NCBI GenBank assembly: GCA_963774565.1
Contig: CAVZFP010000009.1
Coordinates: forward strand, 64,349-128,348
Direction of reading: 5' to 3'
DNA: 64,000 nucleotides
Source of the DNA: an uncultured Acidobacteriaceae bacterium
GTDB lineage: Bacteria; Acidobacteriota; Terriglobia; Terriglobales; Acidobacteriaceae
Position numbers and translations under genes: made by a program. The notes below the pieces were generated by a model. That model saw only the letters and a program-made list of their open reading frames with translations, had not been told where the DNA came from and searched no databases. Positions 11,226-59,927 of the stretch are shown one piece after another. Each line of letters opens with the position of its first letter. The stretch's first letter is position 1.

Positions 11226-11309
11226 AATCCATCGGTTAAGGCAAGGGGCCCGGAAGACTTCCCGGTGCTCCCTGTGCCCTCTGTGGTCTATCTTTTGTTC
11301 GCATGCGGC

Positions 11310-13564
11310 TTAAGAGAAGCCGTTGCGAGTCAGCGGCAGCTCGCGCACTCGCTTGCCCGTGGCCGCGAAGACCGCGTTGCAAAGTGCGGGAACAAACGGC
11401 GGCACGCCGGGTTCTCCCACTCCGGCGGGCGGCGCCGTGCTTTCGACAATGTGTACATCGACCTGCCGCGGAGCGTCGTTCATTCGTCGCGACTTGGTAG
11501 TCGTAGAAGTTCGACTGGTCGACGGCACCGCCGGTCGCTGTGATCTCGCCGGTCCGCGCAATGCTGGTGCCGAACACGGCGGCGCCTTCGAATTGCTGCC
11601 GCACCATCTCAGGATTGGCCACGATTCCCGCATCGACTGCGGTATAAACGTGGGGAATGCGCACCGCACCCTGGTCGTCGACCTCCACCTCGACCACCGT
11701 CGCAACGTAGGTGTAGAAGCTGCGGTGCACGGCGATGCCCAGGCCGGTCCCTTTGCCGGATTTCGTTTTGCCCCAGTTCGCTTTCTCGGCCGCGAGTTCG
11801 GCCACGCGTCGCAGGCGCGCCGTGTCGTAGGGATATTTCTCGCCGACTCCCGGAGGCCCCTGCGGTCCAGCGTCGAGCACGTGGCCCGATCCGATGAGGG
11901 TGAGCAGGTAGTCGTAAGGATCGCGGTTGGCGGCGTGCGCGAGTTCGTTGGCGAACGACTGCACCGCGAACGCGTGATAGATGTTGGCCACCGACCGCAG
12001 CCAGCCGATGCGTACGTGGGCGGCGGCCTGCCCGTTTTCCGAGCGGAAGTTCGGGACTGTCGAAGGGCACGACGTTCCATCCCATCGACATTTCGCCTGC
12101 GCCACCGTACACCTCACCCTCCTTAAACGTAGATCCGATGGGAGGGAAGACCGAGCGTTGCAGCCACGCTTTCGGCCTGCCGTTCTCGTCGAGCGCGGCC
12201 TTCATGTACATGGCGGCGACGGAGTGGTAGTAGTCGAATTTGATGTCGTCCTCGCGGCTCCAGATGACCTTGACCGGCTTGCCCGTCTTCTTCGAGAGCA
12301 CGGCTGCTTCCACCGCATAGTCAGGCTTGGATTTGCGCCCGAACCCCCCGCCAAGGAAAGTTACGTGGCAGACTACGTTTTCTTTCTTCAAGCCGAGCGC
12401 CTTGGCGACTTCTTCCTGCACGCCTTGCGGATCCTGCGTGGGCGACCACACCCTCACCTTTTCGCCCTGAACATCGGCGACCGCGACCGGAGGCTCCATG
12501 GAGGCATGTGCCAGATGAGGCGCGAAGTATTCTGCCTCGACGATCCTGCCGCCTTTGGCGAATTCGGCGTCAGGATCGCCCACAGTGTGCACGACTTTCC
12601 CGGGCTGGCGCGCGGTTTGCTGCAATTCTTTTTTGTAATCGGCGGAGTTGTAGGAGGCGTTGCTGCCATTGTCCCAATCGATTTTGAGTTGCTTGCGGCC
12701 TTTGAATGCGGCGAACGTGTTATCGGCGATGACAGCAACGCCGCCTAGTGGCTGGAACCCATGCGGCGGCTTGAAGGGATCAATCGCGACGGTTTTCTTC
12801 ACGCCGATTACCTTCAGCGTGGCCGAGTCATCGAGGGATTTTACTTTTCCTCCGAGGACCGGCGGATGCGCAATGGCAGCGTAGAGCATGCCATCGACCC
12901 GCACGTCCATGCCAAACAGCGGCTTACCCGAACAAATTTCTGCCACGTCGAAACCCGGCGCCGGCTTGCCGATGTAACGCCATTCTTTTGGCGACTTGAG
13001 CGTCAACTCTTCTTTCTTCGGGACGGGCTGTTTTGCGGCAAGAGAAGCCAGTTCTCCATAGCCGAACTTGCGAGCGGAATTCTTGTCGGAGACAACGTGA
13101 ACCGGATCGGCCACGCACTGCGACTCGGGGATGCCCCACTGCTGTGCGGCAGCGCGGACCAGCATCAGACGCGCGGTGGCTCCGGCTTCGCGCAGCACAT
13201 CGAAAAATTCGCGGACCGAGTGCGATCCGTCAGTGTCCTGCGAACCATATTCGGCATCACCGTCGGCTTGCATCACGTGCACCCGGCTCCAGTCGGCGTC
13301 GAGTTCGTCGGCGAGAATGCGCGGCAGGCTGGTGCGCACGCCGTTTCCCATCTCCGACCGGTGGGCAACGATGTAGACCATGCCGTCGGTGTGAATGCCG
13401 ACGAAAACACTGGGATGGAACGCGGTCGCGTCGACGGAGCCGGGAGCGTCAGTGGCTGCGGCCCATAGAGGCTCAGGAAGAATCCGGGCGCAGAGGACGA
13501 AAGCTCCCGCCGAGAACATGCCCTGAAGAAAACCGCGGCGGCTGACATTCTCGATGGTGATCAT
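11310..13564 (-). CDS. Xanthine dehydrogenase-family molybdopterin-binding subunit (IorB / aldehyde oxidoreductase beta-like) with a Tat signal; two apparent frameshifts (~12080 and ~11500)
   Basis: ORF 11609-13564 starts [26 protein letters not shown], a twin-arginine motif. It continues into ORF 11236-12117 ([43 protein letters not shown]...) and ORF 11310-12080 (C-terminus ...[34 protein letters not shown]). Confidence 0.8.
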
Positions 13565-42694: not shown

Positions 42695-44183
42695 TTAGCT
42701 GGATGAGTTTTCGGATGGCACCGAGTCCGTGGCAGGCTCCTCGTCCCCTGCAGGCACGAGTTCGAATTTCTTCAGTTTGTAACGCAAGGCGTCGCGGCTG
42801 ATGTCGAGTAGGCGGGCGGCGTGGGTCTGATTGCCATTGGCTTGTCGCATGGCGAGTTCGACCATGGCGCGCTCCACCTCTTCCAAAGATGTGCCTTCCT
42901 CGGGAATGTAGAGCCGGGGCAGCACGCGGCCATTCGGAAGTTGCTTGCCCGCGCCATCACCCGGCGTGCTGCTGGCCTCAAAGGCCGTCAAGCCGCCGCG
43001 AGCCGCTTCGCCCACCGCGAACGGCATGTAGACCGGCCGCAGAATGAATTCGTCTTCCAGGATCATGGCGCGCTCGATCGAGTTCTTGAGCTCACGCACG
43101 TTTCCAGGCCAGTTGTGAGCGAGCAGTAACCGGCGGGTCTCGCGCGTCGATGCCACGCACGGACTTCTTGAACTTGCGGTTATACCAGTTGATGAAGAAG
43201 TCGACCAGAGGCAGAATATCTTCGGTGCGCTCGCGCAGCGGCGGAATGAAGATAGCGATGATGGCCAGCCGGTAATAGAGATCCTGGCGGAAATGGCCTT
43301 CGCGTACCGCTTTTTCCAGATCGCGATTGGAGGCCGCGATTACGCGCACATCCACCTGCATATCGCGTACGCCTCCTACCCGGCGAATCACTTGGTCTTC
43401 GAGTACGCGCAGCAGTTTGGCTTGCAGCAAGGGAGAGAGTTCGCCGATTTCATCCAGGAATAACGTGCCGCCATTGGCCGTTTCAAACAGGCCCTTCTTC
43501 ATCTGCTTGGCGTCGGTGAAGGCGCCTCGTTCGTGGCCGAAGAGTTCAGCTTCCATCAGAGTCTCGGGAATGGCCGAACAGTTGATGGCGACAAATGGGC
43601 CGTGCTGGCGGGAGCTATCGTAGTGGATCGTTTTGGCGATCAGGTCTTTGCCGGTACCGCTCTCACCTTGAATCAGAATGGTGGTGGCCTCGCTGGCAGC
43701 AACCTTTTGCACGAAGTTCATCAGTTCTGTTGTTTTCGGCGAAACCGCAACGACTTCGTGATAGCCCGTGCTCCGGCGCACTTCCCCGCGCAGAGACTGG
43801 ACTTCGGTGCGCAAGCGGGAAGCTTCCAGCGCATTCTGGATGGTGACGTGTAATTCCTCGAAATCCAGGGGCTTACCGATGAAGTCGTAAGCACCCAGTT
43901 TAAGCGCGGTTTTGACGTCGTCCAGTTGAGGATCGGCCGTAATCATGATCACGGCGGGGGCGTCGGGACTTTTCTTAAGCTGTTCGAGAACTTGTATTCC
44001 GTTCAAATCTGGCAGGCGCACGTCAAGCAGAACCAAGTCGGGAGACTCGTGCTGCGCGAGGCGAAGTCCGGGGTCGCCGGCCGCGGCTTCGACAACCTGG
44101 TATCCCCACTCTTCGCACTTCTGACGCAGCGACCAGCGCACCAGGCGCTCGTCGTCAATCACCAGAATCTTCTCGGCTGGCAT
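42695..44183 (-). CDS. Sigma54-dependent response regulator (NtrC family: REC, AAA+, Fis-type HTH), with one apparent frameshift (~43150)
   Basis: ORF 43092-44183 carries the receiver DLVLLDVRLPDLNG, Walker A GESGTGK, the GAFTDA sigma54-contact loop and VRVIAASN. ORF 42695-43156 carries NWPGNVRELKNSIERA and the HTH AARLLDISRDALRYKLKKF. Confidence 0.9.
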
Positions 44184-45313: not shown

Positions 45314-46579
45314 CTAGGACGAAGAAACTGGCGCAGCCGCCCTATGCAGCGGCAGAATCACGGCAAACGTTGTGCCCTTGCCGACCGCGCTGGTGACGTC
45401 GATGCGGCCTTGGTGATCTTCCACGATGCGGCGGGCTAGCGACAATCCCAGGCCCGTGCCGTCGCCTTTGGTGGTGTAGAAGGGCCGGAAGATGTTGGGC
45501 AGGTGATCGGCCGGGATGCCACGGCCATTGTCGGCCACTTCGACCACGGCGGTGGCTCCAAGGGGCTTTACGGTGACCGTGATTTTGCCGTTCGCGTCGA
45601 TCGCCTGCAGAGCATTCAACAGCAGGTTCAGCAGCACTTGGTGGATCTGATCGCTATCGTGCTCGACTTCCGGCAAGGCGGGATCTTTGTGGAGCGTGAT
45701 GTCGAAGGACTTAGCCAGCGCCTGCTGGCGGCCCAGCATCACGGCATGTTCGACCGTAATATTCAGGTCACTCTTGCGAACCTTGGGAGGATGCGGCCGG
45801 GCAGTCTGCAGGAGATCGGTGACGATGTGATTGATGCGTGCGATTTCCTGGCGGACGTCTTTGACCACGGTGCGCGCCGGGCTGCTTACGGGCAGATCAC
45901 GACCAATAATTTCGATGACGCCGGCAATCCCCGCCAGAGGGTTGCGGATTTCATGGGCCAGTCCTGTCGCCATCTCTCCCAGAGTGGCGAGGTGCTCGGC
46001 GCGCGACATTTGCGTGCGGTGCAGGCGTTCGATCTCAGCCCGGCTTTCGCGGAGCTGCATTACCATCTGATTGAAGTTGCGGCCGAGGTCGCCGATCTCG
46101 TCGTTGCGCCGGGCGAAACTCACGGCCACGGTGAGATCGCCGCCGCCGAGCCGAGCGATCTTCTGCTGCAGTTCGACCATGGGGCGCTGCACCGTGTAGG
46201 TGAGCACAACGAGCAGTGCACCGCAAATTGCGACCGCCCCTGCTCCCGCGACTAACAGAACGATGTGGCGTTCGGGATCGCGCCAGGAGAGCGTGGCCAG
46301 CAAGAACAGCAGCATTCCGCCCAGCAACACGCAGGCAATCGGCACCAGCGCCTTGATCTCCCAGTTGATGCGAAGCCAGGGAAGTTCGGGATCCTCAGGC
46401 TTGGTTCCAGGCGTGGCGGAAGCGTCCGCAACCGGTCCAGTCGAGATAGGATCCGTCAGCAATGCTGCTCCCGAATAGGCTGTACTAAAAAAGCCGGCAC
46501 GCGAGCGAGCAGAGCTGGACGCAGGGACCTCATCAGTCGGAATGTCTGGACTCGTTGGTTTCGTCATGGTCTCAGGCAT
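45314..46579 (-). CDS. Sensor histidine kinase (2 TM, HAMP, HisKA, HATPase_c) with almost no periplasmic loop
   Basis: Intact 421-aa ORF. It has a HAMP-like [20 protein letters not shown], the H-box [12 protein letters not shown], the N-box LLNLLLNA, the G1 motif DNGRGI and the G2 motif GTGLGLS. Its start overlaps the ccsA stop by 8 nt. Confidence 0.9.
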
Positions 46580-47969
46580 ACGCGTGCAGTCCTGGAAGCA
46601 AGTAGGTCACGCCAAAGAAAGTGAACATCACCACCGCGAAGCCCAGGATGGCGAAGTAGGCCGCGCGCCGGCCGCGCCAGCCGCGGGTGATGCGCATGTG
46701 CAGGTAGCCGGCATAGACCAGCCAAGTAATCGCCGCCCACGTCTCCTTGGGGTCCCAATTCCAGTAGGACCCCCAGGCCCGGTTGGCCCAGTAGGCGCCG
46801 GCGGCGATCATCAGGGTGAGCAGGGGGAATGCAATGCAAATTGTTTTGTAGGTAATTCGGTCGAGCGCGTCCGCATCCGGCAACAGGCGTTCCAGATCCT
46901 GGCGTCGCCAGAGCAGCAGAAGATAAAGCAGGTTAGCGAAGATTCCGCCGACCAGTGCGGAAAGAATGAACGGGCTCGCCGCCAGGCTGGTGGCATAGAG
47001 TCCGTCCGCATCGAGCGAGGGATACTGCCCGGAGCGTACTCGCAGCAGGAAAAATACCAGCGCCAGCGATTGCAACAGAATGCTGATGAAGACCGCGCGG
47101 TCGGCGAAGGCCAGCAACCCTTCATTTTTCTGGACTCGTGACAAAATGTAAAGCACGAGCGGCGCCAGCACCGCGGCGAACACCAGAAGCATCAGCCAGC
47201 CAAGGTCTGGAATCGTGACGAACAGCCGCACCCCACGCGAGACGAACACCTCGGCTTTGTTCTCCGCATCCCACGCGACCACGCTGAGCCCGCCCCACTT
47301 TTCGAAGCGCATCAAGACCGCGGCATAGATGCCAACGGTGAACACACTGGTCGCCGCCAGAAAGACCTCTGTCTTCATCTTGTCCTGGATCAGGAACATC
47401 ATGGCGAGCGCGAAGCTCAGGGCGCATGCCGCATATGCCAGCATGGCGAGGGTCACATGCACGTGCAGCCACGTCGATTGCAACGCCGGTACGAGCGGGC
47501 GCACTTCGCTGGGCAGAAGCTGCATCAAGATAACACCCACAATGGCGACCGGCATGGTCACGGTGCCGATGACTTTTACCCCGTAACGTTTCTCGGCGAT
47601 CAGGGTCAGCGCCGCCAGCGTCCACACGAAGCTCAGCAGCATTTCATAGACGCTGGCGAATGGCGGATGCCCCGCTTCATACCAGCGATGGGCCACGGCT
47701 CCAGTGTTGACCAGCAGTCCAGCCCATGTCATGAGCGATGCGAACTTGATGTAGGAATCGGTCCCGGTCACGCCAAAGCCAAGATACAGAGCTCCCGCGC
47801 CAGCGTAGAAAACCAGCGCGGCATACAGCAGGTTGGCCTCACTCAGAAGGCTTCCGCTTTTGATCACATTCAGAAAAGCCATGAACAGCAGGAACGCCAT
47901 TCCCAACCCCACCATCACGATCAGCGTATTGCCGGTCGCGGGATGCTGTTCAACGTTTGCGCGTGCCAT
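46572..47969 (-). CDS. ccsA: Cytochrome c biogenesis protein CcsA/ResC (system II haem-handling subunit)
   Basis: Intact 465-aa polytopic ORF with the Trp-rich WWD-type motif [14 protein letters not shown] and conserved His residues. Confidence 0.9.
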
Positions 47970-47990
47970 ACACTTCCTCCGTAGCCGGAC

Positions 47991-49457
47991 TCACCTTCCG
48001 GCGATCGATGTTCTGGCGATCGATGTGGCCTGTGCCTGGGCCGAAGCCACGATCTCGGTTTCCAATTCCTTCTGAATCTCTTTCACCACGTTCTTGAACT
48101 TATGTTCGAAGGCGTCGCGGTTACGGTTCGCCGTGCCACCGACCCACAGCGCCGCGCGGCCGCGCGCATCGACTACGGGAACGACCCAGAACCGCATGTG
48201 AACCACGTAGAAAACAAAGGTCAGGCCGATTGCCATCAACACGACGCCAGCCCAAACCGCCCACTGGCCGGGTTCGTGCGAGACCTGCAGTCCGGTGTAG
48301 AGCCCGGTCTTCAAGTCCTTGGGGTCGAAAATGTAGGGGGAGGACGCGTTCTCGTCGACGCCCGGAATGTCGGGCAGCCACACGTTCACGCTGGTGTTCG
48401 CTTTCTTCGAAGTCACGACCAGGTGGACCGCGGGGTTCACGACGTCTCTACTGCGGGCGTAAACCCGGCCGTCCTGCACCACGAAGTCAGGGATGAACTC
48501 CACCAGTTGCACGCTGGTGTCGGCATCGAGGGCGACGGTCTGATTCATGGCCAATGAAATTTCCTGCGGAGTGCGCGTGGCGCCGCGGGCGGGAGTCGCG
48601 TTCAGTATCAGTTGATCGAGCTTGCCAGTGCGGCCATAGCTGGCCTGATAAAAGCGCAGCCCCTGATAAACCAGTGGGTCGTTGACCACAATTTCTTTGC
48701 GCGCGATCTCGCGGCCGCCGTCCACCACGGCAAGCTTCGACCACCAACGCTTGGGAGTGCCGTCGGCGTAGGTCTCTTCGCCGGTGCCATCGCAGCGGAT
48801 GGAGAACGGAATGGTCTGCAGAGAGCCGTTCTTGAGTTCGATCTGGTTGCTTGCGCTTCCCGGCGTCAGCATCAGGAATCCGCGCCATCCGTAGAGCGAG
48901 TCCACAATGAAGCCCAGGAAAATCAGCAGCAGGCTGGCGTGAACGATGTAGACGCCCATCTCGGAAATACGATTGCGCTCCGCGAACAACGAGAAGCTGT
49001 CGGTGCGTACGATCCGTTCGGCTTTCAGTCCCAGGTGGCGGAAGGCGCGCTCGGCTGCGCTCAACGCTTGCTCGTCATCGGCCACTGCAATTAGCGCCTG
49101 CGTCGGCAGAACCTTGCGGAAACTTTCATCAGGACTCTTATAAGGACGGGCGAAGTAGCGCCATGCGTTCGGGAATCGCTGCACCGACGCTGCGATGATG
49201 CTCAAGCTGACCAGAATCATCAGGGCGACGAACCAGCGCGTGTGGAAGATGTCAGTCAGGCCCGTGACATCGAGGAAGCGCAGCATCGCCGGGGAGTAAG
49301 CGCGCTGCATGTCATCGGGGTCGGTGATCGGACGCTGCAAGATGACCGTACCCGCAGCGGAAAGGATGACCACCAGGATAATCAGAACTACGCCCGTCTT
49401 AATGGAACTAAGTGTCTGCCAGATTTTGCGGACCGCGGAGCGAAGTGACTGGGCCAT
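47991..49457 (-). CDS. resB: Cytochrome c biogenesis protein ResB/Ccs1 (system II)
   Basis: Intact 488-aa ORF. It has the N-terminal TM GVVLIILVVILSAAGTV, a large soluble loop and a C-terminal TM pair, and lies immediately upstream of ccsA. Confidence 0.85.
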   Translation of the reverse strand: MAQSLRSAVRKIWQTLSSIKTGVVLIILVVILSAAGTVILQRPITDPDDMQRAYSPAMLRFLDVTGLTDIFHTRWFVALMILVSLSIIAASVQRFPNAWRYFARPYKSPDESFRKVLPTQALIAVADDEQALSAAERAFRHLGLKAERIVRTDSFSLFAERNRISEMGVYIVHASLLLIFLGFIVDSLYGWRGFLMLTPGSASNQIELKNGSLQTIPFSIRCDGTGEETYADGTPKRWWSKLAVVDGGREIARKEIVVNDPLVYQGLRFYQASYGRTGKLDQLILNATPARGATRTPQEISLAMNQTVALDADTSVQLVEFIPDFVVQDGRVYARSRDVVNPAVHLVVTSKKANTSVNVWLPDIPGVDENASSPYIFDPKDLKTGLYTGLQVSHEPGQWAVWAGVVLMAIGLTFVFYVVHMRFWVVPVVDARGRAALWVGGTANRNRDAFEHKFKNVVKEIQKELETEIVASAQAQATSIARTSIAGR

Positions 49458-49635
49458 ATCTTTCCTTTCCCTTCATTCGGACAATGCACGTTCCGCTCCA
49501 ACTTCGTGCAATCCCCACAATTCGTTTTGGTTCAACGGGTTGCGCTGCGGGGTGAGTATTTGTGTCCGACCGCGGTTGAGCCATTACACTCACGTGCGAA
49601 GTTGGTGCGCTGCGTTTTCACCCACCGCTCAAGTG

Positions 49636-49651
49636 TGTGATTTCAATCACA
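49636..49651. promoter_or_regulatory. Perfect CRP/FNR-family palindrome TGTGA-N6-TCACA in the divergent resB / 16-haem cytochrome control region
   Basis: tgtgatttcaatcaca is a 7-2-7 perfect inverted repeat. It also contains the FNR-like TGAT-N4-ATCA core. It lies ~180 nt from each divergent start codon. Confidence 0.5.
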
Positions 49652-49828
49652 AAAGCGGATAAGGGGCGTGCGTTATTTCCACCAGTGGGAGTGCGGCAGA
49701 AAGCCCATTCAGGGCTGGACTCGGGTCTGTGAAAATTCGCAACATCGATAGCCCCACCCTTGAAGTGACTGTGAGGCAAACACTTACAGATTCTTAGAGA
49801 GCCAGTCGCCCGCGGCCAAAATTAGGAG

Positions 49829-51370
49829 ATGTTCGTGCAAAAGCTAAGGTACATGGTCCCAGAGGTCCAAAATCGCAAGGCTTCGGTAACCGGGCGGAAA
49901 CTGCAAACAGCCCTCCCTAAATTTGTATGGCTGTGCGGCTTCGTCCTCGCGATCGCGATCTCGCCGGCTGTAGCGAAAACCCACCCGGTCCCACTCGACA
50001 AGAATGTGGATGCGGCGAAATGCATCGAGTGCCATGAGGACAAGACCAAAGGCAAGGCGGTTCACTCGGCCATCGCTACCGGATGCCTGAGCTGCCATGA
50101 AGTCCGGGTCAATAACGACGTCACACGCGTCAAGCTGACGGCGACCACTCCTTACAAGCTTTGCCTCACTTGTCACACCGAGAAGGACGCCAGCCAGATT
50201 AAGGGCACGATCCACAAGCCTGCAGTTCGTGATTGCCTGACCTGCCACGATCCACATGCCACCGATTTCAAGAACCAACTGTTGAAAGCGACGTCTGGCG
50301 AGAAGAAAGACAATCTCTGCCTCACGTGCCATAACCAGGGCGAGAATGTTCCCGCGAAGGGCAGCCGTCACGCCGCGCTCGACATGGGCTGCGACACCTG
50401 CCACACGACGCACAAGACTGGCCCCGAAGCCACTGTGCAGAATCAGTTCCACCTGACCAAGGCGACGCCGGCCCTTTGCATTGACTGCCACGACGTGAAG
50501 GACGCAGCACTGCAGAAGGCGCATCAGAATCAGCCCTTCGGTACCGCGAACTGCGTAAGCTGCCACGATCCTCACCAGTCTGCAGCGCCCAAGCTGATGG
50601 CGAAGTTCACTCATCCGCCCTTCGCCGACAAGAGCTGCGACACGTGTCATGCTGCGGCGAAAGACGGCAAAGTTGTGCTGACGCAAGCCAGCGCCAAAGA
50701 ACTCTGCGTCACCTGCCACTCCGATCAAGCCGAGCAGATCGCGAAGGCGAAAGTGCAACATCCCGGAGCGGCTGGAGATTGCACCGACTGCCACAATCCG
50801 CACGCCGGTAACACTCCAGGTTTTGTGCAACCCACACCGGTGGCCGCGTGCCTGAACTGCCACAGCGATCAGGCGGAACTGCAGAAGAACCCGCACCTGC
50901 ACCAGCCGGCTTTCCAGCAGGGATGCGCTACCTGTCACGAGCCTCACGGCGGCGACAACCAGCACCTGTTGCGTACCGCCAATGTGAATTCGCTCTGTCT
51001 CGAGTGCCACGGCCCGGATCGGGACCCCGGCAAACTGGAGAACGATCATCTGCTCACTATTTTCGAGGGCAAGGTGAAGCTGCCGGAAGACTACTTCAAG
51101 ACGAAGCGCCCGCCGGTGTTGCCGCTGCAGTATGGACTGGGGCATCCGACCGAGCGCCACCCGATTTCCGATGTTACGAACCCGACCACCAAGGCCGTCA
51201 CTGCGATGAATTGCTTGACTTGCCACCAGCCGCATGCGGGCGCCGACAACGGCATGCTGGTGAAGGACCAGGCGCCCAACATGCAATTCTGCCGCACCTG
51301 CCACAGCAATCCGATGGATCTGAAATCGGTCGGCGGCGGCAACGAAACAAAGGGCGGAGAGAAACGATAA
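49829..51370 (+). CDS. Multihaem c-type cytochrome with 16 CxxCH motifs (c7-like repeat architecture), exported
   Basis: Intact 513-aa ORF. An in-frame GTG at 49835 is better spaced from the aggag RBS. It has the signal peptide KFVWLCGFVLAIAISPAVA. I counted 16 CxxCH motifs, from CIECH to CRTCH. Confidence 0.9.
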   Translation: MFVQKLRYMVPEVQNRKASVTGRKLQTALPKFVWLCGFVLAIAISPAVAKTHPVPLDKNVDAAKCIECHEDKTKGKAVHSAIATGCLSCHEVRVNNDVTRVKLTATTPYKLCLTCHTEKDASQIKGTIHKPAVRDCLTCHDPHATDFKNQLLKATSGEKKDNLCLTCHNQGENVPAKGSRHAALDMGCDTCHTTHKTGPEATVQNQFHLTKATPALCIDCHDVKDAALQKAHQNQPFGTANCVSCHDPHQSAAPKLMAKFTHPPFADKSCDTCHAAAKDGKVVLTQASAKELCVTCHSDQAEQIAKAKVQHPGAAGDCTDCHNPHAGNTPGFVQPTPVAACLNCHSDQAELQKNPHLHQPAFQQGCATCHEPHGGDNQHLLRTANVNSLCLECHGPDRDPGKLENDHLLTIFEGKVKLPEDYFKTKRPPVLPLQYGLGHPTERHPISDVTNPTTKAVTAMNCLTCHQPHAGADNGMLVKDQAPNMQFCRTCHSNPMDLKSVGGGNETKGGEKR

Positions 51371-52659
51371 TGTCTGCACACCGCAAATCAAACTGCACCC
51401 GCAAGCTTTGGACTCTGATTCTGTTCGCTCTGGCGCTCGCCTCCGCGGTGCCGGCCCATGCGGACAAGAAGAAGTCTGCTCCGGCCACGGGAAACGTCAA
51501 GCTCGGCGATCAGCGCAGCAAGGCATATTTCGATCTCAGCAAGATCGTGTGGCCGAATCCTCCGGCGATCGCGCGGATTAAGTTTGTCGATCTGTTTACC
51601 GGACAGAAAGTCGATCCTAATCTGTTCTCCAAGAAGAACCAGAAGACGAAACAAAAATGGATGGACCGCCTGGCGGGCGACCAACAGACGGAAGAAATCA
51701 AAATCAAGGATCTGCCTTTCCAGTTAATCCGGACTTACGGAGTAGCGGTCGATTCCAAGGGCCTGATTTACGCTGCGGACCAAGGCGTGAGCGCGATCTT
51801 CATCTTCAACACCGAGACCAAGGCGGTCGAGCTGATTGCCAACGGAAAACAGGTGCATTTCGGCGCAGTGAGCGGCATGGCCCTAGATGACAACGATCGC
51901 CTGTTTGTGACTGACGTCGGTCTGCGCCGTGTTGACGTATTCAAGCCGGGAACGCACGAGTTGGAGACCGTTTTCGGTGGCGACGTCCTCGCCAAGCCCG
52001 CCAGTATCGCCATCGATACCGAGAACCGGTTTATCTATGTCGTTGACACGCAGAACGACGTGGTGGACGTGTTCGATGCCGACAGCTTCAAGCTGCTGCG
52101 GAAGATCGGCACGCCGAGCAAGAAGCACACGCTGACCGCCCCGGGAACTTTCTCCCTGCCGATGGGCGTCGCGGTTGACAAAGACGGCAATGTTTACGTC
52201 ACCGACACTTTCAACGACCGCATAGAGATCTTCGACGCCGACGGCGGTTTTATCAGCATGTTCGGCAAGAACGGCGATGGGCCCCAGGATTTTGAGCGGC
52301 CCAAGGGAATCGCGGTCGATGGCGATGGCCACATCTGGGTTGCGGATTCCGCTCAGGACCGGATCAAGGTTTTCGATAAAGACGGCCGCTTGCTGATTTA
52401 TTTCGGTGAGCACGGCGAATATCCCGGTCGCTTCATGGGCGTTTATGACATAGCGATTGACAAGAACAATCGGGTCTTCACTTCCGAAATGTTTCCCGGT
52501 CGCGTGCAGATGTTCCGTTACATCACCGACGAGGAAGCCGCTGCGGAAAAGAAGCGGCGCGAGGATGAGTCCGAACAGAAGCATCCCGCCGCTCCGGCAC
52601 AGAAGCCGGTCAGCGAAGCGGTGCAGAGTAACGCGGCAAAAGATTCTGCGGCGAAGTAA
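51370..52659 (+). CDS. NHL-repeat six-bladed beta-propeller protein, exported (429 aa)
   Basis: The ATG at 51370 overlaps the cytochrome stop as TAATG. It has the signal peptide KLWTLILFALALASAVPAHA and repeated NHL units (P.GIAVD..G.IYV.D....RI.VFD). The N-terminal 174 aa of ORF-track entry 50848-52659 is an out-of-frame overlap and is not part of the gene. Confidence 0.85.
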   Translation: MSAHRKSNCTRKLWTLILFALALASAVPAHADKKKSAPATGNVKLGDQRSKAYFDLSKIVWPNPPAIARIKFVDLFTGQKVDPNLFSKKNQKTKQKWMDRLAGDQQTEEIKIKDLPFQLIRTYGVAVDSKGLIYAADQGVSAIFIFNTETKAVELIANGKQVHFGAVSGMALDDNDRLFVTDVGLRRVDVFKPGTHELETVFGGDVLAKPASIAIDTENRFIYVVDTQNDVVDVFDADSFKLLRKIGTPSKKHTLTAPGTFSLPMGVAVDKDGNVYVTDTFNDRIEIFDADGGFISMFGKNGDGPQDFERPKGIAVDGDGHIWVADSAQDRIKVFDKDGRLLIYFGEHGEYPGRFMGVYDIAIDKNNRVFTSEMFPGRVQMFRYITDEEAAAEKKRREDESEQKHPAAPAQKPVSEAVQSNAAKDSAAK

Positions 52660-52845
52660 GGCAGTCTGAAGGAGCTTGCGATGAAAAGCGAAGCGAACAA
52701 CCGGTTGCAACGAGCCGCAACAAGTTCTCGGCAGTCCATGGCTGCCGAAGAACAAGCGTCGGGCAAAAGCCCGGCTCTTGGATCCAGACGTACTTGTACA
52801 GCTTTATTTGTGTTGCAGCACAATCCTAAGGAGGTTTCGAAACTT

Positions 52846-53734
52846 ATGAAGAAAGCGATGTTAGTTCTCTTGGTAGTATGCGGCGTCGCTGCTATGGCGA
52901 TGGCGCAAGCTGGGACCATCAGCAATACGACAGACGTCCTCGGCGCCCACCTCGGCTACGGCCGTGGCTGCGTCATGTGCCACGCTCCGCACAGCGGTCC
53001 TGCCGGTAACGGCAAGACCGTCAGCGATTCTCAAGCTGGCAAGTTTGCTTTGTGGGGCCAGGATCTTACCCCGCTGTACGGCGCAAACCTTGACGTTCAG
53101 CGGCGACGGCAAGGCCACCTACGCTGTCACACTGCCGGCGCAGGGCACGATCACCAGCGCCCATGACGCCAACACCATCATCCTGTTCTGCCTGAGCTGC
53201 CATGATGGCAACGTTGCCCCGGCTACTCACATGACGGGAACGACGGTTGAGACCCTGCCAGTCGTCGGCGGCAACGCTCCCACTTTCCTGGGCAAGGACG
53301 GAACGGGCGCAACCAACCCGTATCAGAACGACCACCCGGTGGGCGGCGCAGCAATCGTCAGCTGCGGCGGACAATACAACTGGGATTGCACTGGTGGCAA
53401 TACGGTTGGAATCACGATGGCTGGCGCTACTCACGGCGGACAGTTCCTGACGAACTACGGTGGCTCGTTCTGGAACACTGGCACCGTCAACGCGACCAAC
53501 GTCAAGCTGGCCACCTTCGGCACAGTCGTGACCGCAGTGACCTGCACCACCTGCCACGATCAGCACAGCATGACCGTGTTCACCAACAACGTCGGCAGCT
53601 TTGCCACGAGCTTCTTTGTTCGCGGCAACTACATGCCACAAACCGGCGGCAACAACGCGGCGCAGTTCTGCCGCAACTGCCACGGCGGCGAGTCGAACGA
53701 ATTGCACAACGTGAATGGCGTTCCGACCACCTAG
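52846..53734 (+). CDS. Small exported tetrahaem c-type cytochrome (~296 aa, Gly/Thr/Asn-rich), with one apparent 1-nt frameshift (~53087)
   Basis: The RBS aaggagg (52828-52834) precedes the ATG at 52846. The signal peptide is MKKAMLVLLVVCGVAAMAMA. ORF 52681-53166 joins ORF 52964-53734 at ...LYGAN|LTFSGDGKATY... The four CxxCH motifs are CVMCH, CLSCH, CTTCH and CRNCH. Confidence 0.8.
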
Positions 53735-53753
53735 GCTGTGTTGTTTTGAACCC

Positions 53754-53784
53754 TGGGGGAGGGAAGTTCCTCCCCCAATTTCTT
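53754..53784 (+). terminator. Strong hairpin (attenuator or partial terminator) directly after the tetrahaem gene
   Basis: tgggggagg-gaagtt-cctccccca is a 9-bp GC-rich stem, followed by aTTTcTT. It lies 12 nt before the PPIase ATG. Confidence 0.55.
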
Positions 53785-53795
53785 GGAGAAAGATC

Positions 53796-54815
53796 ATGAA
53801 GTGCCAGCTCTTAATTTCGATCGTGTTCTTGGCGGCCATCAGCCCGGCTTGGGCGCAGCTTGTCAGTTCGCACGCTTCCACCCTGCCCACGCAGCCCGCG
53901 GCCAGCGCCATGGAAGCAGCCAGCAAGCCTGTGGCGCGAGTAAATGGAGCGGTCCTGACAGACCGTGACCTGATACGCGAGGAGTACACGATTTTCCCTT
54001 ACGCGCGCCAGCATAACGGCGTCCCGAAAGGGATGGAAGCAGATATCCGTGCCGGCGCCATGAAGATGATTGTCTTTGAAGAACTGGTTTACCAGGAAGC
54101 GGAACGCCGGAAGCTGACCGTGCCACCCTCCCGTTTTCGTCAGGCCGAGGTCGCCTTCCGCAAGCAGTTCACGAATCCGCAGGAATATCAGGAGTTGCTC
54201 AACACCGAGTTCAAGGGTTCCAAGGCGCTGCTCGATTCCAAGATCCAGCGCTCGCTGCTGATCGAAACCATGTTGAAACAGGAAGTGGAGGACAAAGCCT
54301 ACATTCCCATGGCCCAAGCCCGCACTTTCTATGACAAGAACCCAGAGCGGTTCCGCGTTCCGGAGTCGTTTGCGATGCAAACGATTTCGATCATTCCGCC
54401 CAACAACGCGAGCCCGGAACAGGTGAAGGAAGCGCGCAAAAAAGCGGACAACGCTCTGCGCCAGGCCAAGCTGACCAAGAGCTACGACGACTTTGGCCTG
54501 CTGGCCGAAAAGCTTTCCGAGGACGACTACCGGGTCATGATGGGCGATCACAAGGCGGTTGACAAGGCCAAGCTGCCGCCGCAGGTGTTGCAGGCGGTAT
54601 CGAGCATGCAACCCCAGCAAATGAGCGGCCTTATCGACATCGGGAATAACGGGTACACGATTGCGCGGCTGAACGAGCACGTCCCCGAAGGCAAGCGGAC
54701 CTTTGAACAGGTGAAGGACAGCATTCGCGAGTACCTGAAGAAGCAAAAGACGGAAGAACTGCGCAGCGCGCTGGATAAGCGGCTGCGGAAGAACGCGAAG
54801 GTAGAGGAGCTCTAA
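53796..54815 (+). CDS. SurA-N / PpiC-type (parvulin) peptidyl-prolyl isomerase, exported
   Basis: ATG at 53796 within ORF 53715-54815. It has the signal peptide MKCQLLISIVFLAAISPAWA, a SurA-like chaperone N-domain (VARVNGAVLTDRDL...) and a parvulin-like region (FAMQTISIIPP...). Confidence 0.75.
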   Translation: MKCQLLISIVFLAAISPAWAQLVSSHASTLPTQPAASAMEAASKPVARVNGAVLTDRDLIREEYTIFPYARQHNGVPKGMEADIRAGAMKMIVFEELVYQEAERRKLTVPPSRFRQAEVAFRKQFTNPQEYQELLNTEFKGSKALLDSKIQRSLLIETMLKQEVEDKAYIPMAQARTFYDKNPERFRVPESFAMQTISIIPPNNASPEQVKEARKKADNALRQAKLTKSYDDFGLLAEKLSEDDYRVMMGDHKAVDKAKLPPQVLQAVSSMQPQQMSGLIDIGNNGYTIARLNEHVPEGKRTFEQVKDSIREYLKKQKTEELRSALDKRLRKNAKVEEL

Positions 54816-54817
54816 TC

Positions 54818-56665
54818 GTGAAGACTGTCGTCAAACGCGGGATTCTGGTGGCCAACCTGATTATGCTGATGGCCACGTTGCCCGCGTGGGCGCAGGTTGA
54901 GGTCGGCGAGAATACCAGAATGAACCTGAGTGGTAATCTCTCCTTCGGATACACCGCTGATTACTCCAACCTGTTGCCATCCGACCATGGCATGACCCCT
55001 GGCGGCAATGCCGATCTGAGCGGGTATTATTACAACCCGAACTTCCTCTCATTTGACGTGCAGCCCTTCTATAACCAGTCCAGAGATAATTCTCAGTATC
55101 AATCCGTATTTCAATCCGGAGGAGTGAGCGGCAACGCATCCATCTTCTCCGGCAGCCACTTTCCCGGAACGGTGAACTACAGTAGGGTCTACAACAACGA
55201 AGGCGGGATCACCCTGCCCGGCGTGGGTAGCCTGGTTACCCGCGGGAAGAGCGATAATCTTGGCCTGGGTTGGGGAATTCATATTCCCGGTTACCCCAAC
55301 GTTCAATTCCAATTTGCCGACGGCGGGAGCAACAGTTCAGTGTTTGGGACCAGTGCAAACAGCACATACCGCTCTAAACTGTTCGGGGTGGCTGTATCGG
55401 ACCGATGGGCCGGCTTCGACCTCAGCGGCGATTATCACCGCAACAACATTCACTCCCTCACACCTGACTTTCTTGCGGGCGAAGGTCCCGTGGCTTCGGC
55501 AGGCTCATCCAATTCCTACGACTTTACCCTTGGGCATAAATTGCCGTTCAATGGTGCGTTTTCGGCTGCGGCCGGCAGGTCCGATGTCAGTTCTGAATCG
55601 AGTGGCGAGCAGTTTAACGGAACCATCGATACGGTCGGTTCCGGCGTAAGCTTCGAGCCTATCGCCAATCTGAATCTGGGCGTCACCGAGCAGTACACCA
55701 ACAATCTGGAAGGGTCGATTTACCAGTCGGTGTTTTCTGGGGGAGTAGTGCCGTCGTCATTGCTTGACTATTCGACCCACTCGCTCGACATCAACGGACA
55801 CGCCAACTACACCGTGCCATCGATTCATCTGACGTTTGGGGCCATTGCAGACCGTCGCCAGCAGGAAATATTTGGGGTTTCACTGTCGGCTGACATGTTT
55901 AGTGAATCGGTGATCTACGGAGCCGATTTGCTGGGCGGCTATTTCAATGCCAGCGCGGCTGTGACCCAAACCCAGATCATGGGCGTAAACGGGGGGGCGC
56001 ACTCCCTGGGGCAGTTCGAAACCGTCTCCTACTCGCGTAAGTACCAGAATTGGACCCTGAACAGCTCGTTCAACTACTCACACAATACGCAGACCGTTCT
56101 GATTGGTTACACGGCTTCCGGGTACGGATATTCAGCCGGAATTGGGCGCAGAATTGGGGCCTATTCGTTTTGGAGTGTGAACGCCGTCGAGACGAAATCA
56201 AAATTCAGCAACTCCTCGGGATCGGAAAACCTAAGTCAAAGCTATTCGACCTCTCTCACCTTGAAGCGGTTTAGCATGAGCGGGAGTTATGCGAAGGCCG
56301 ACGGCAATTCGCTGCTTACGCCAACGGGCCTGACGCCAGTGACAACTCCCATCCCAGTTTTGACCCCGGCGCAGGAGATTGTGTTTGGCGGAAAATCCTA
56401 CTCTTTCGGCGCCTCGACCACTCCGCTACATGGGCTCGTCCTGTCGGGCTCTTACTCTTCGACAAAGAGCAACACGACAGCGAGTTATGCCACTTCCCAG
56501 AACACGACTGCACAGTTGAATACGATGCTACAGTACAAGGTAAGGCAGTTGTGGATCACGGGCGGCTATTTGAGGCTGCAACAGGGGTTTAGCATTACTG
56601 GCCAGCCCGCCGCTTCGTATTCGTCGTTCTTCATGGGGATTACGCGGTGGTTCAAATTCTTCTGA
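54818..56665 (+). CDS. Predicted outer-membrane beta-barrel protein of unknown family (615 aa)
   Basis: Intact ORF with a GTG start 2 nt after the PPIase stop. It has the signal peptide ...LIMLMATLPAWAQ and long runs of alternating hydrophobic/polar residues rich in Gly/Ser/Tyr/Asn. The C-terminus ...GITRWFKFF has a terminal aromatic residue, typical of BAM substrates. Confidence 0.65.
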   Translation: MKTVVKRGILVANLIMLMATLPAWAQVEVGENTRMNLSGNLSFGYTADYSNLLPSDHGMTPGGNADLSGYYYNPNFLSFDVQPFYNQSRDNSQYQSVFQSGGVSGNASIFSGSHFPGTVNYSRVYNNEGGITLPGVGSLVTRGKSDNLGLGWGIHIPGYPNVQFQFADGGSNSSVFGTSANSTYRSKLFGVAVSDRWAGFDLSGDYHRNNIHSLTPDFLAGEGPVASAGSSNSYDFTLGHKLPFNGAFSAAAGRSDVSSESSGEQFNGTIDTVGSGVSFEPIANLNLGVTEQYTNNLEGSIYQSVFSGGVVPSSLLDYSTHSLDINGHANYTVPSIHLTFGAIADRRQQEIFGVSLSADMFSESVIYGADLLGGYFNASAAVTQTQIMGVNGGAHSLGQFETVSYSRKYQNWTLNSSFNYSHNTQTVLIGYTASGYGYSAGIGRRIGAYSFWSVNAVETKSKFSNSSGSENLSQSYSTSLTLKRFSMSGSYAKADGNSLLTPTGLTPVTTPIPVLTPAQEIVFGGKSYSFGASTTPLHGLVLSGSYSSTKSNTTASYATSQNTTAQLNTMLQYKVRQLWITGGYLRLQQGFSITGQPAASYSSFFMGITRWFKFF

Positions 56666-57751
56666 AATCGGTTTTCGGTGAGACGTGCTGGAAGCGAGCA
56701 CTGGTTTGCGCCATGGCGCTGCTGCTGGCTCCGGTGCCGGGAGCAATCGGGAAGACCTCCAAGACGCAGCCCGTAGAAGTTCCCGAGTTGCTGCTGGAGG
56801 GTGGACGGCGGCTCACCTTTGAGCGCAGTTTCTGGTCTGAGCCCGAAGTGAAGATTAAGCGCGGCTTCTGGACCAAACTCATCGACATCGTGGCGGGCGC
56901 TCCCGACTTTCATGTCCTGATCAGTCCCTACGAAGTCGTGGAGGATTCCCGCGGCCGCATCATCGTGACCGATCCGGGAGCGGCCGGAATCCACATCTTC
57001 GACTTTGGACAGCAGAAGTACAAATTCATCTCGCGCGACCGAGATGACAACAACGGGCTGGTCACACCGCAGTGCGTCGCCGTGGATGCCGAAGACAACA
57101 TCTATGTGACCGATTCGGAGTCCGGCAAGATCTTCGTCTTCGAGCCCGGCGGAAAATTTCAGCGGACGATCGGCAGCCTGAAAGGCGGCGAAGGATATTT
57201 CAAGCGTCCGACTGGAATCGCCGTCGATTCCGCGGCGCAGCGCATTTACGTCACCGACACACTGCGCAACCAGATTTTCGTTCTCGACATGCAGGGCGAC
57301 GTGCTGCAGACCATTGGCAAAAACGGGGATCGGCAACGTCGAGTTCAACTATCCCACCGAGTTGCGCCTGTCGGGCAATCATCTGATCGTGGTCGATGCG
57401 ATGAACTTCCGCGTGCAGGTGCTGGACCGCTCGGGAAACTTCCTCTACGCCATCGGGCGCATTGGCGAAGGGCAGGGGCAGATGTTCCGGCCGAAGGGGA
57501 TCGGCGTGGATTCGGAAGGGCATCTGTACGTGGTGGAAGCGGTGCGCGGGTTAGTGCAGGTTTTCGACCAGGCGGGAAACCTTCTTTACTACTTCGGAGC
57601 GAAGGGGAGCGGCTTTGGAGAATTCCAGTTGCCCACCGGCTTGTGGATTGATCATAACGACCGTGTTCTGATTGTCGACTCGTATAACCGGCGAGTCCAA
57701 GTGTTTCATTATTTCGGGCTGGCAAAACAAACCGCGGGAGGTCAGCCTTGA
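56647..57751 (+). CDS. Second NHL-repeat beta-propeller protein, with one apparent frameshift (~57330)
   Basis: ORF 56647-57651 (...GRIIVTDPGAAGIHIFD...PQCVAVDAEDNIYVTDSESGKIFVFE...PTGIAVDSAAQRIYVTDTLRNQIFVLD) continues in ORF 57314-57751 (...NHLIVVDAMNFRVQVLD...PKGIGVDSEGHLYVVEAVRGLVQVFD...). Confidence 0.8.
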
Positions 57752-59776
57752 GATCGAGGCTTATTGCGGCGGCCGTCGTGTCGGTGCTGGCGAGTGAGAT
57801 GGCATTCGCGCAGATCTATACGGACGTGCTTGGAGCGCATAATATGTCGCCCGCCAGCGGATCTCCAATTACCGGGAATCTCGGCAGCCCGTGCCTGTAC
57901 TGCCACGCGCCACACTCGGGGATCGAAGGTACGGGCGGTGTGAGCGGAACTCCGCTGTGGAGTCAAAAACTATCAAGCGTGCAGTCGTACCAGACATATA
58001 CCAGCATCACGATGGTGAATAAAACCAATGCATCCCCACCGCTGGGGTCGAATAGCACGCTTTGCCTGAGTTGCCACGATGGCACGGTGGCACTGGGAAC
58101 GCTCACTCCCTATGGTCAGGTATCGATGTCGGGAACTCTCGCCGGGACGGCTGCGGATCTGGGAACGAATCTGCAGTCGACGCATCCATTTAACTTTGTT
58201 ACGCCGCTGCAACCGGCTCCCGACATATGGCCGTCGTTGGGCGCCAGTCCCCCTTCGACCCAAGATACGACGGGTGTAGTGCGGCTCATCAATGGCAATG
58301 TGGAGTGCGGAAGTTGTCACAATCCGCATGTGCAGAACATCGATTCCAGCTCTGATTTCCTGGTGATTGATAACTCGCAAAGTGCGCTCTGCTTGGCCTG
58401 CCACAACACGGTTCCGAGCGGAACTGGGATGGGACTGGCAGCGAGTGTGGCTCGTCCCGCTACAGCGGCCGGCGTAACGTCGAATTCAACTTCAAAGACA
58501 GCCTCGGTGAACCCGCTTGCACGATGGCGGGAGAGCATCCATGCCACCGCGACCAACCGGGTTGCGAGCCAGATTTCGCCCGAGGCGGTCGGGCTTGTCT
58601 CCAAGCGAATGACTCGCGTCGGTGCCCTTGGACCCTACACCAACCTGCGCAAGAACGGGTGTTTATCCTGCCACGCGACACACAACTCGTCCACGAAGGT
58701 CTTGCTGCGAGCACTGGACGATCAGACCTGCATCGTCTGTCACAGCGGCGGCACTTCTGTGTCGCCTCCGGCTCCGAACATCGCCGCCGAGATGGCGTCG
58801 CCGAAAATCAGCCACGTGATCGCCGGCGGCTGCGAAAAACAGTTCGCACTCGGCGCGCGAGAGCGAGTTGCTGAATCACAATCGCCATGCCGCTTGCGTG
58901 GATTGCCACAATCCCCATGCCACGAAACAGGTCGGCTTGAGTTTTCCCGCGCCTCCGCTAATACGTCCGTCGCAGGAGGGGGTGAGTGGCATCAGCGCCA
59001 CCGACGGCCGCAGTATTGTCTCTCCCGCCACGAATCAATACGAGAACTGCCTGCGCTGCCATGGAACGAGTGCGGGCAAATCAGAGAACGTGGCGGTGTT
59101 TGGGTATCTGCCCAACCGGTTGGTCTCGGGGCCGGATCCTTGGAACGTGATCCCGCAATTCGGGTTGACATCCACGTCAAGCCATCCCGTGATACATGAT
59201 CGTCGCAGTCCATTTCCGCAGCCCAGTCTTCGCTCGAACATGCTTGATCTGGACGGAGTCCGGCAAGGGCGCACCCTGGGCGTGCGTATCTTGTGCACGG
59301 ACTGCCACAACAGCGACGACAACCGGGAATTCGGCGGAACTGGACCGAATGGACCTCACGGCTCGAAGTATTCCCACATCCTGGAACGTCGCTACGATAT
59401 GAGCCAAGCGCCGGTGCCGGGCCAGCCCATTACGAATTTGATCGTACCGCCCAATCTGACTGCGACGGGCAACTTCGCGCTTTGCGCGAAGTGCCATGAC
59501 TTAGCAACCATTGTCAGCAATTCCAGCTTTAGTGAGCATGCTCGCCACATCAACGATGGGTTTTCCTGCTCGGTGTGTCACACTTCGCATGGAATGGGAT
59601 CACAAATGGCTACTGTATCCGGCGAGCGCATGGTGAATTTCGATCTCAACGTCGTTGCCCCCAACGGCAGGAGCCCAATTACGTACCGGAAATCGACGAA
59701 TTCGTGCAGCCTGACCTGCCATGGGCACGCTCATGGGTCCGCTGGAACGGGCGAACCGGTGAGACTGCGGCCGTAA
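57748..59776 (+). CDS. Exported multihaem c-type cytochrome with 11 CxxCH motifs plus one CxxxCH, with one apparent frameshift (~58840)
   Basis: The TTG start overlaps the NHL stop as TTGA. The signal peptide is MRSRLIAAAVVSVLASEMAFA. ORF 57748-59199 carries CLYCH, CLSCH, CGSCH, CLACH, CLSCH and CIVCH. ORF 58868-59776 carries CVDCH, CLRCH, CTDCH, CAKCH and CSVCH, and also CSLTCH. Confidence 0.8.
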
Positions 59777-59927
59777 AACCTCTGGGCTTTTCTTCGGTCA
59801 GGGGTTCTAGGACAATTCCCGGTTGAGCCTTACACAGACCCGGCGACGATCTCTTCGGGAGGGTTATAGGGTAGAAATACGCTCTACGATCCTAATCAGC
59901 GTTCTCGAAGCTTGTTTTCCATCTCGT

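Follow-up and report, generated by a model that had tools for sequence, protein, structure and literature searches.

The stretch of DNA analysed here, a window of 64,000 nt from an uncultured Acidobacteriaceae bacterium (GenBank assembly GCA_963774565.1, contig CAVZFP010000009.1, positions 64,349 to 128,348 of the forward strand), harbours a gene for a large 12-haem c-type cytochrome at 57748–59776 (+) and, upstream of it within the same gene cluster, a gene for a free-standing tetrahaem cytochrome at 52846–53734 (+). By profile comparison, the N-terminal tetrahaem module of the large cytochrome (the N-module) and the free tetrahaem protein are both members of the OmcE family of cytochrome nanowires. 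It is the fused N-module that represents the canonical OmcE-like form, the free protein having diverged, as the former attains the stronger OmcE scores in profile, hhalign, BLASTP and hidden Markov model (HMM) comparisons. The reading favoured here, to which we assign a probability of roughly 45 %, is that the large cytochrome may be a secreted two-domain protein of an OmcE-type cluster for extracellular electron transfer, which would act as a fixed adaptor between an outer-membrane conduit and an extracellular haem chain.

OmcE-family membership of the fused and free tetrahaem units

The proteins described are frame-corrected versions, rebuilt with the intact 658-aa protein P0001 (97 % identical) as guide. 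After correction, the large cytochrome comprises 675 aa, starting from a TTG (57748) that is preceded by the Shine-Dalgarno sequence GGGAGG, and ending at 59776. It contains 11 CxxCH motifs and one C-terminal CxxxCH, and hence 12 haem sites, in agreement with the 11–12 put forward by an earlier reading of this DNA made from the sequence alone (the sequence-only reading). Its parts are as follows.

57748–57810 (+), signal peptide, residues 1–21, with cleavage between AFA and Q, as read from the sequence
57811–58410 (+), OmcE-family tetrahaem N-module, residues 22–221, with four CxxCH motifs and four conserved distal histidines
58411–58647 (+), variable linker rich in Ala, Ser, Thr and Gly, leading from haem 4 to haem 5, much of it unconserved in the family consensus
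58648–59776 (+), C-terminal 8-haem domain (C-domain), with 7 CxxCH and a terminal CxxxCH, conserved in distant fusions
59705–59722 (+), CSLTCH, a CxxxCH haem-binding motif near the C-terminus, present in 120/120 acidobacterial homologues

A family profile of the N-module retrieves the structure of Geobacter sulfurreducens OmcE (GSU0618, PDB 7TFS, chain 7tfs_A) with an E-value of 7.7e-24, aligning profile positions 10–220 with residues 13–231 of the 232 in the chain, and that of the D. soudanensis homologue (PDB 9YUQ, chain 9yuq_N) with an E-value of 2.5e-17. The corresponding values for the tetrahaem family profile are 3.3e-6 and 4.4e-6. OmcE was reached by family profiles only; in single-sequence searches of the PDB, the tetrahaem protein gave no match and the large cytochrome only insignificant ones. 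When both families were compared by hhalign with 120 Geobacter-type OmcE homologues, the N-module aligned over 208–211 columns (E 1e-35 to 8e-37) and the tetrahaem over 221 (E 4e-19 to 9e-19), whilst the C-domain, serving as a control, produced a match of just 35 columns (2e-6). Pairwise BLASTP against G. sulfurreducens OmcE follows the same order, with 34.6 % identity over 191 aa for the N-module (E 5.6e-19) and 27 % for the tetrahaem (E 5.6e-6), as does an OmcE HMM in the acidobacterial loci examined (77–115 and 25–50 bits, respectively).

A census of histidines separates the two units further. The OmcE family possesses exactly eight invariant histidines, four within the haem motifs together with H31, H58, H149 and H208. 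The N-module likewise has exactly eight, its distal residues H31, H56, H146 and H194 lying at the OmcE-equivalent positions. The distal histidines of the tetrahaem are H35, H49, H164 and H241, and in all three families these residues are ≥98 % conserved. The tetrahaem family, in addition, displays a ninth conserved histidine, H107 (96 %), within a SAHD motif 13 residues before haem motif 2, as well as an invariant cysteine pair, C174/C182, in an insertion that is absent from both OmcE and the N-module. Such a nine-histidine protein fits the 'stopper' predicted for OmcE-type filaments (Petersen et al., bioRxiv 10.1101/2025.10.22.684050). With nine conserved histidines and an extra cysteine pair, the idea that the free tetrahaem is a polymerising filament subunit is not secure. 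The stand-alone form of 220–250 aa that ends after haem motif 4 is seen in neither unit, the N-module forming part of a 675-aa protein and the tetrahaem being ~295 aa in length.

The haem motifs themselves are well maintained. Those of the N-module (CLYCH, CLSCH, CGSCH and CLACH, within residues 49–219) are conserved in 117/120 homologues, and those of the tetrahaem (CVMCH, CLSCH, CTTCH and CRNCH) in 119/120. The start of the tetrahaem is taken as the ATG at 52846, which has a strong AAGGAGG sequence 8 nt before it; this, together with the signal peptide that follows, points to the shorter version as the true start. A longer open reading frame (ORF), which adds 52681–52845 (MKSEANN...), is included in several database homologues of 345–348 aa.

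The sequence-only reading had proposed that the first ~210 residues of the large cytochrome parallel the tetrahaem protein motif by motif, and this is borne out. A direct hhalign comparison of the two families returns a probability of 99.2 % and an E-value of 2.1e-19 over 196 columns, with every one of the four CxxCH motifs and of the four distal histidines in register; the first ~220 residues of the large cytochrome are homologous to the tetrahaem. Conserved positions outside the haem motifs are also paired (DVLGAH, CHAPHSG, LW.Q.L, CLSCHDG.VA, xxHP and CH.xH), and the resemblance thus extends beyond generic CxxCH spacing. For comparison, the tetrahaem profile finds only a 46-column paired-CxxCH match within the C-terminal 8-haem part (E 1.8e-4). 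The shared mature N-terminus that had been noted is likewise present, both proteins displaying a signal-peptidase site of the form A-x-A followed by Q, with DVLGAH 3–8 residues later. The two halves of the module are not equally alike. BLASTP of the single proteins (32 % identity, E 1e-10) spans haems 1–2, and with an alternative pair of alignments, including a MAFFT alignment of 120 close homologues, hhalign covers the first ~103–107 columns, again haems 1–2. The match in the second half is weaker, alignment-dependent and much more diverged, because the tetrahaem carries ~80 extra residues there. Paralogy between the two is therefore upheld, but the N-module does not derive from its tetrahaem neighbour, for it lies nearer to Geobacter OmcE than the latter does.

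The gene cluster, its reading frames and the C-terminal domain

Both genes belong to one cluster that spans 46572–59776 of the window, from ccsA to the large cytochrome, the last of which is detailed above.

46572–47969 (−), ccsA, System II cytochrome c maturation, divergent from the cluster
47991–49457 (−), resB, System II cytochrome c maturation, divergent from the cluster
49829–51370 (+), 16-haem cytochrome, with 16 CxxCH motifs
51370–52659 (+), NHL β-propeller 1 (NHL1), in ATGA overlap with the 16-haem cytochrome gene
52846–53734 (+), stand-alone tetrahaem cytochrome, ~295 aa after frame correction
53796–54815 (+), SurA-like periplasmic peptidyl-prolyl isomerase (PPIase), the syntenic homologues of which carry Pfam Rotamase_2 and SurA_N_3
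54818–56665 (+), putative outer-membrane β-barrel of 615 aa, conserved in position in all loci
56647–57751 (+), NHL/DUF5128 β-propeller 2 (NHL2), frameshifted, with Pfam NHL/DUF5128 in the homologues of loci L001 and L085–L089
57748–59776 (+), large 12-haem c-type cytochrome, 675 aa after frame correction

The counterparts of the barrel in related loci have no Pfam match on record, and for the cytochromes Pfam and NCBIfam yielded only generic multihaem domains. The stop of NHL2 and the start of the large cytochrome overlap by 4 nt (TTGA), an arrangement of translational coupling, and an overlap of 4 nt or 1 nt between propeller and cytochrome is also present in L001, L085, L087 and L088. The resB/ccsA neighbours recur in L001, L085, L086 and L089, and in the omcE locus of G. 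sulfurreducens (L082). The 16-haem cytochrome/NHL1 pair is conserved too, although some loci have it downstream of the core. Genes for tetratricopeptide repeat (TPR) CcmH-like proteins flank the cluster in the window and its relatives. Upstream lie genes for a histidine kinase and for a response regulator of the σ54 type. The kinase (45314–46579) and regulator also adjoin the cluster in L086 and L087. In the window, this NtrC-type σ54-dependent regulator (42695–44183, −) consists of two overlapping ORFs, 43092–44183 and 42695–43156, the second of which starts just ahead of a WPGNVRELKN motif; the split is probably due to another 1-bp indel.

Three of the nine cluster genes, namely those for the tetrahaem, NHL2 and the large cytochrome, are divided between reading frames. 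As read, the large cytochrome consists of ORFs at 57748–59199 and 58868–59776. The single frame break expected from the sequence-only reading is confirmed, but not at its proposed position of ~58840; alignments with L084 and L089 place the extra base at 58825 (+), a G in ATCGCC-G-GCGGCT. The first of these relatives, L084, is a metagenome contig with 98.2 % nucleotide identity and intact genes, relative to which one base too many is present in the window at each of 57324, 58825 and 59861, the last being intergenic. Compared with the second, L089 (78 % identical, none of its eight genes broken), the window carries 1-bp insertions at ~53084, 57319 and 58828, whilst all remaining internal indels are multiples of three. 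The extra base in the tetrahaem gene is placed at 53082–53084. As the frameshifts are absent from a contig of 98.2 % identity, and as the other indels are multiples of three, they are probably sequencing or assembly errors of the insertion type.

The alternative is that the frameshifts are real and the cluster is decaying in this organism, in which case the similarities described would be of evolutionary interest only here. A 1-bp frameshift in a third of the cluster genes lends itself to this, as does the apparently split σ54 regulator upstream. Against it, the three coding insertions, plus the intergenic one at 59861, are all missing from the 98.2 %-identical contig, every other indel relative to the 78 %-identical locus preserves the frame, and the disrupted ORFs show no further decay. 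Furthermore, similarly split ORFs occur in several loci from 'MFD' metagenome-assembled genomes, which we take to be long-read Microflora Danica assemblies. With the insertions absent from both close relatives, pseudogenisation of the cluster is largely rejected, and decay is considered very unlikely.

With regard to the remainder of the large cytochrome, the eight haem sites after the N-module (7 CxxCH and one CxxxCH) agree with the 7–8 anticipated earlier, CSLTCH included. The protein has >3,500 homologues of ~660–700 aa; 11 CxxCH motifs are retained in 117 of 120 acidobacterial examples. Across 140 homologues, the distance from haem motif 4 to haem motif 5 varies from 18 to 146 aa whilst every other spacing is tight, a sign of two domains on a flexible tether. 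An HMM of the C-domain covers most of this domain in distant fusion proteins of 538–690 aa, and most of the distant full-length fusions listed carry the C-terminal CxxxCH as C[YSTN]L.CH. A profile search of the PDB revealed no significant structural homologue of the C-domain, the OmcE matches being to the N-terminus only. Orthology of the C-domain to either the 370-aa or the 330-aa cytochrome of the Geobacter omcE locus was considered and rejected, the matches consisting of generic paired CxxCH motifs and one weak C-terminal match. The latter involves the last ~95 residues of the 370-aa cytochrome (6163–7275 of L082) and the end of the C-domain (independent E-value 1e-4). Both proteins terminate in a CxxxCH, and the Geobacter protein harbours such a motif at either end (CATRCH and CVVGCH). 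A remote relationship between the end of the C-domain and this cytochrome is possible on these grounds.

Distribution of the cluster and possible role of the large cytochrome

Both families have thousands of members, the named ones coming from Terriglobia, Ca. Sulfotelmatobacter, Solibacter and Bryobacteraceae. A scan of GTDB species representatives yielded >589 loci, of which 80 were retrieved, all from Acidobacteriota. Wherever at least 5.7 kb of upstream DNA was available (~75 species), the tetrahaem, PPIase, barrel, NHL and large cytochrome genes are all present in that order, with the free tetrahaem ORF 4–5.5 kb upstream of the large cytochrome on the same strand. The expectation that the two cytochromes would co-occur across genomes thus holds for every acidobacterial locus with sufficient flanking sequence, and reverse look-ups from two tetrahaem proteins lead to the same cluster. 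A second tetrahaem gene, in convergent orientation (−), exists in L021, L027, L030, L035, L042, L043, L048, L057, L058, L069 and L080. It is located at ~11.9–13.1 kb, mostly immediately downstream of the large cytochrome, save in L043, where it lies at 15.7–16.6 kb, ~4 kb further on. Several of these loci also have the 16-haem cytochrome/NHL1 pair downstream.

Beyond close relatives, the N-module profile, when searched against 1.84 billion cluster representatives, matched 4,833 clusters at 50 % identity. The best 150 of these fall into two size groups, one of ~200–250 aa that matches the profile end to end, and another of ~540–690 aa that matches at the N-terminus. Among the same 150 are ~30 full-length fusions of 538–690 aa, with 11 CxxCH, one CxxxCH and a match to the C-domain HMM; one such fusion cluster derives from Planctomycetota. 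In two distant loci of non-acidobacterial type, L087 and L088, an NHL gene, a barrel gene (660–675 aa), a second NHL gene and then the fusion follow one another, the stop of the NHL gene overlapping the cytochrome start. These two loci contain 1–3 canonical OmcE-like genes of 220–248 aa alongside (3482–4156, 10934–11611 and 11819–12481 in L088; 11942–12688 in L087). In addition, L088 encodes a pair of cytochromes (326 aa and 375 aa) of nearly the same size as the Geobacter pair of 330 aa and 370 aa. The barrel, NHL and fusion genes are the most conserved core of the cluster.

The constituents of the cluster diverge at different rates, as judged by median identity to the window proteins across 71 loci. 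The barrel evolves fastest (37 %), followed by the tetrahaem (45 %) and the N-module (49 %), whilst values of 54.5 % for the PPIase, 56 % for the C-domain, 63–66 % for NHL2 and 65 % for the 16-haem cytochrome are higher. The N-module therefore changes at a rate like that of the barrel and free tetrahaem, with the C-domain nearer to the presumably periplasmic components. This pattern is consistent with an N-domain that is exposed and a C-domain that is buried.

The synteny, variable linker and rate pattern fit the adaptor reading introduced at the outset, which is in essence the anchor, nucleator or terminal adaptor put forward as speculation by the sequence-only reading. In such an arrangement, the C-terminal 8-haem domain would associate with the 615-aa barrel, with potential help from the SurA-like chaperone and from the NHL propeller that is co-translated, and would take electrons from the periplasmic 16-haem cytochrome. 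The OmcE-like N-domain, exposed at the cell surface, would then dock the free tetrahaem by the head-to-tail interface of OmcE, with a stacked haem pair and a cross-interface histidine. The docked partner could be either a polymer or a single capping unit, and the large cytochrome would in this manner join a trans-outer-membrane conduit to an extracellular haem chain. A more specific version holds that the fusion is the missing fixed end of OmcE-type wires, with its C-domain plugging the barrel, its N-domain forming the first unit of the chain and so anchoring the wire both electrically and mechanically and, in Acidobacteriota, the nine-histidine tetrahaem acting as a cap or terminator in place of an ordinary polymer subunit; this version is regarded as doubtful.

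Several points weigh against the adaptor. The location of the large cytochrome, and which of its domains faces outside, are matters that we infer. The tetrahaem, with its nine conserved histidines and large insertion, may not polymerise, and the N-module keeps the 'polymerisable' set of eight, such that the large protein could polymerise by itself. AlphaFold2 models built without haems and from shallow alignments reach a pLDDT of just 49.5 for the tetrahaem and 33.1 for the N-module, too low for the models to speak for any reading. In the window, the large-cytochrome gene is frameshifted, and should this be genuine, no such protein is produced here. Lastly, G. sulfurreducens, the best-studied OmcE system, produces OmcE filaments with no fusion in its locus, and the fusion is therefore not a general requirement for such filaments.

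Two other roles for the large cytochrome deserve consideration. It may itself polymerise, the N-domains stacking into an OmcE-type core from which the 8-haem C-domains project as exposed branches, in effect a decorated or 'leaky' nanowire; the free tetrahaem would then either terminate it or act as a partner in the periplasm. That the N-module has four haems and exactly eight invariant histidines, as does polymerising OmcE, and resembles OmcE more closely than any other protein of the acidobacterial cluster, accords with this possibility, as does the agreement of the tetrahaem with the formal description of a 'stopper' by Petersen et al. However, OmcE ends right after haem motif 4, exactly where the ~450-aa extension of the large cytochrome starts, by implication near the subunit interface, and an extension so placed would probably hinder regular stacking. 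Moreover, distant lineages pair the fusion with 1–3 canonical small OmcE-like genes, which look like major subunits, and the fusion is single-copy whilst the small paralogues are often duplicated. Self-polymerisation is, on balance, unlikely.

It may also be that no filament is formed at all, and that the cluster encodes a porin-cytochrome conduit of the Mtr/Pcc type, made up of a periplasmic 16-haem protein, a barrel and a 12-haem protein at the surface, in which the OmcE-like fold is a reused packing unit for four haems and the free tetrahaem a soluble or surface shuttle that need not bind the N-module. The gene content does parallel Pcc/Mtr systems, comprising a barrel and two large multihaem cytochromes, and Fiorito et al. 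(2026, bioRxiv 10.64898/2026.05.27.727921) interpret the acidobacterial 'EET1 porin-NHL-CytC' cluster as a conduit with an MtrB-like barrel. The strong divergence of the tetrahaem from OmcE (~80 additional residues, together with the ninth histidine and a pair of cysteines that look like a disulfide) points in the same direction. Conversely, both paralogues keep the DVLGAH arm and the four distal histidines, suggesting that interface chemistry has been retained, for it is a histidine ligating the haem of the neighbouring subunit that holds OmcE-family filaments together. The small and fused OmcE-like genes also co-occur strictly across phyla, and a conduit devoid of any filament is viewed as a rather improbable explanation.

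The present cluster family bears on the question of how nanowires made of cytochromes come to be secreted and anchored, and of what starts and stops them. It is very large, crosses phyla and contains candidates in the form of an OmcE domain fused to an 8-haem domain and coupled to propeller and barrel genes, to which Acidobacteriota add a second candidate, the nine-histidine OmcE paralogue. If the interpretation is true, these would supply the initiation and termination parts that Petersen et al. described as not evident in OmcE operons, and OmcE-type systems would extend to the abundant Acidobacteriota of soil and peat, and to other phyla. The hosts are dominant Terriglobia of such environments, and EET1, which is very probably the same cluster, is reported to be transcribed in situ. 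The cluster may explain anaerobic CO2 production without inorganic electron acceptors. Concrete pairs of proteins are also now available with which the ends of OmcE-type wires can be tested.

Relation to known systems

Compared with OmcE from G. sulfurreducens and D. soudanensis, both units described here share the four CxxCH motifs as well as, in equivalent positions, the four distal histidines. They differ in that the OmcE unit constitutes the N-terminal domain of a 675-aa protein with eight more haems after it, and in that the free paralogue is ~65 residues longer, aside from its ninth histidine and cysteine pair. In the definition of Petersen et al., an OmcE cluster lies beside resB/ccsB and contains, besides OmcE and a large barrel, a pair each of multihaem cytochromes and β-propellers; by their account, the operons that they studied encode no candidate for an OmcE-like tip or stopper. 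The omcE locus of G. sulfurreducens is ordered as resB, ccsA, cytochromes of 370 aa and then 330 aa, NHL, OmcE, a barrel of 752 aa and glycosyltransferases; an OmcE-fusion protein is not present in it. The same kinds of neighbour surround the acidobacterial genes (resB/ccsA, multihaem cytochromes, NHL/DUF5128 β-propeller and large β-barrel), and the neighbourhood of a barrel and propellers near resB/ccsB is found in the window, in the ~75 acidobacterial loci and in L087 and L088. The cluster in the window departs from this pattern in its SurA-like PPIase and in its host phylum, Acidobacteriota, which lies outside the five listed by Petersen et al. This affiliation is supported by the source names of the nearest homologues and by 80/80 genome loci, all of which point to Acidobacteriota/Terriglobia.

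The closest published counterpart is the acidobacterial EET1 cluster, which was found to be transcribed in situ in peat and read as a porin-scaffold-cytochrome conduit, with a barrel modelled as MtrB-like (Fiorito et al. 2026). For its '13-heme OmcE-like MHC', an AlphaFold3 (AF3) model with haems matches 7TFS with TM 0.70 and 29 % identity (bioRxiv 10.64898/2026.05.27.727921). The window displays the same three-gene core in the same order (54818–56665, 56647–57751 and 57748–59776), likewise in Terriglobia. By strict definition the cytochrome has 12 CxxCH/CxxxCH motifs, as opposed to the 13 counted in the preprint under a looser one. The EET1 cytochrome and the window gene very probably belong to the same family, matched by description rather than by sequence. 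The cluster, and the OmcE-likeness of its large cytochrome, are thus already in the preprint, which treats the cytochrome as a single OmcE-like protein. Neither Fiorito et al. nor Petersen et al. was found to contain the split into domains, the paralogy with the tetrahaem, the canonical nature of the fused copy, the nine-histidine feature or the cross-phylum core of barrel, NHL and fusion.

Similarity to other conduits is one of composition. Like Shewanella MtrCAB and Geobacter OmaB/OmbB/OmcB, the cluster encodes a large β-barrel, a periplasmic-type multihaem cytochrome and a candidate surface cytochrome of ~12 haems. No homology to the Mtr/Pcc cytochromes themselves was detected with NCBIfam models, in which DmsE reaches 40 bits (cut-off 192) and GSU2203 33 bits (cut-off 325). 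The NHL propellers, the PPIase and the OmcE-family domains are extra relative to Mtr/Pcc conduits. A different analogy, raised both in the discussion of Petersen et al. and in the sequence-only reading, is with the minor subunits of chaperone-usher pili, such as PapH and PapK. Whilst the fold and assembly chemistry are unrelated, with haem-histidine ligation in one case and donor-strand exchange in the other, the two systems share, at the level of function alone, a paralogue of the major subunit that is encoded in the same operon and that may occupy a unique position at the base or tip.

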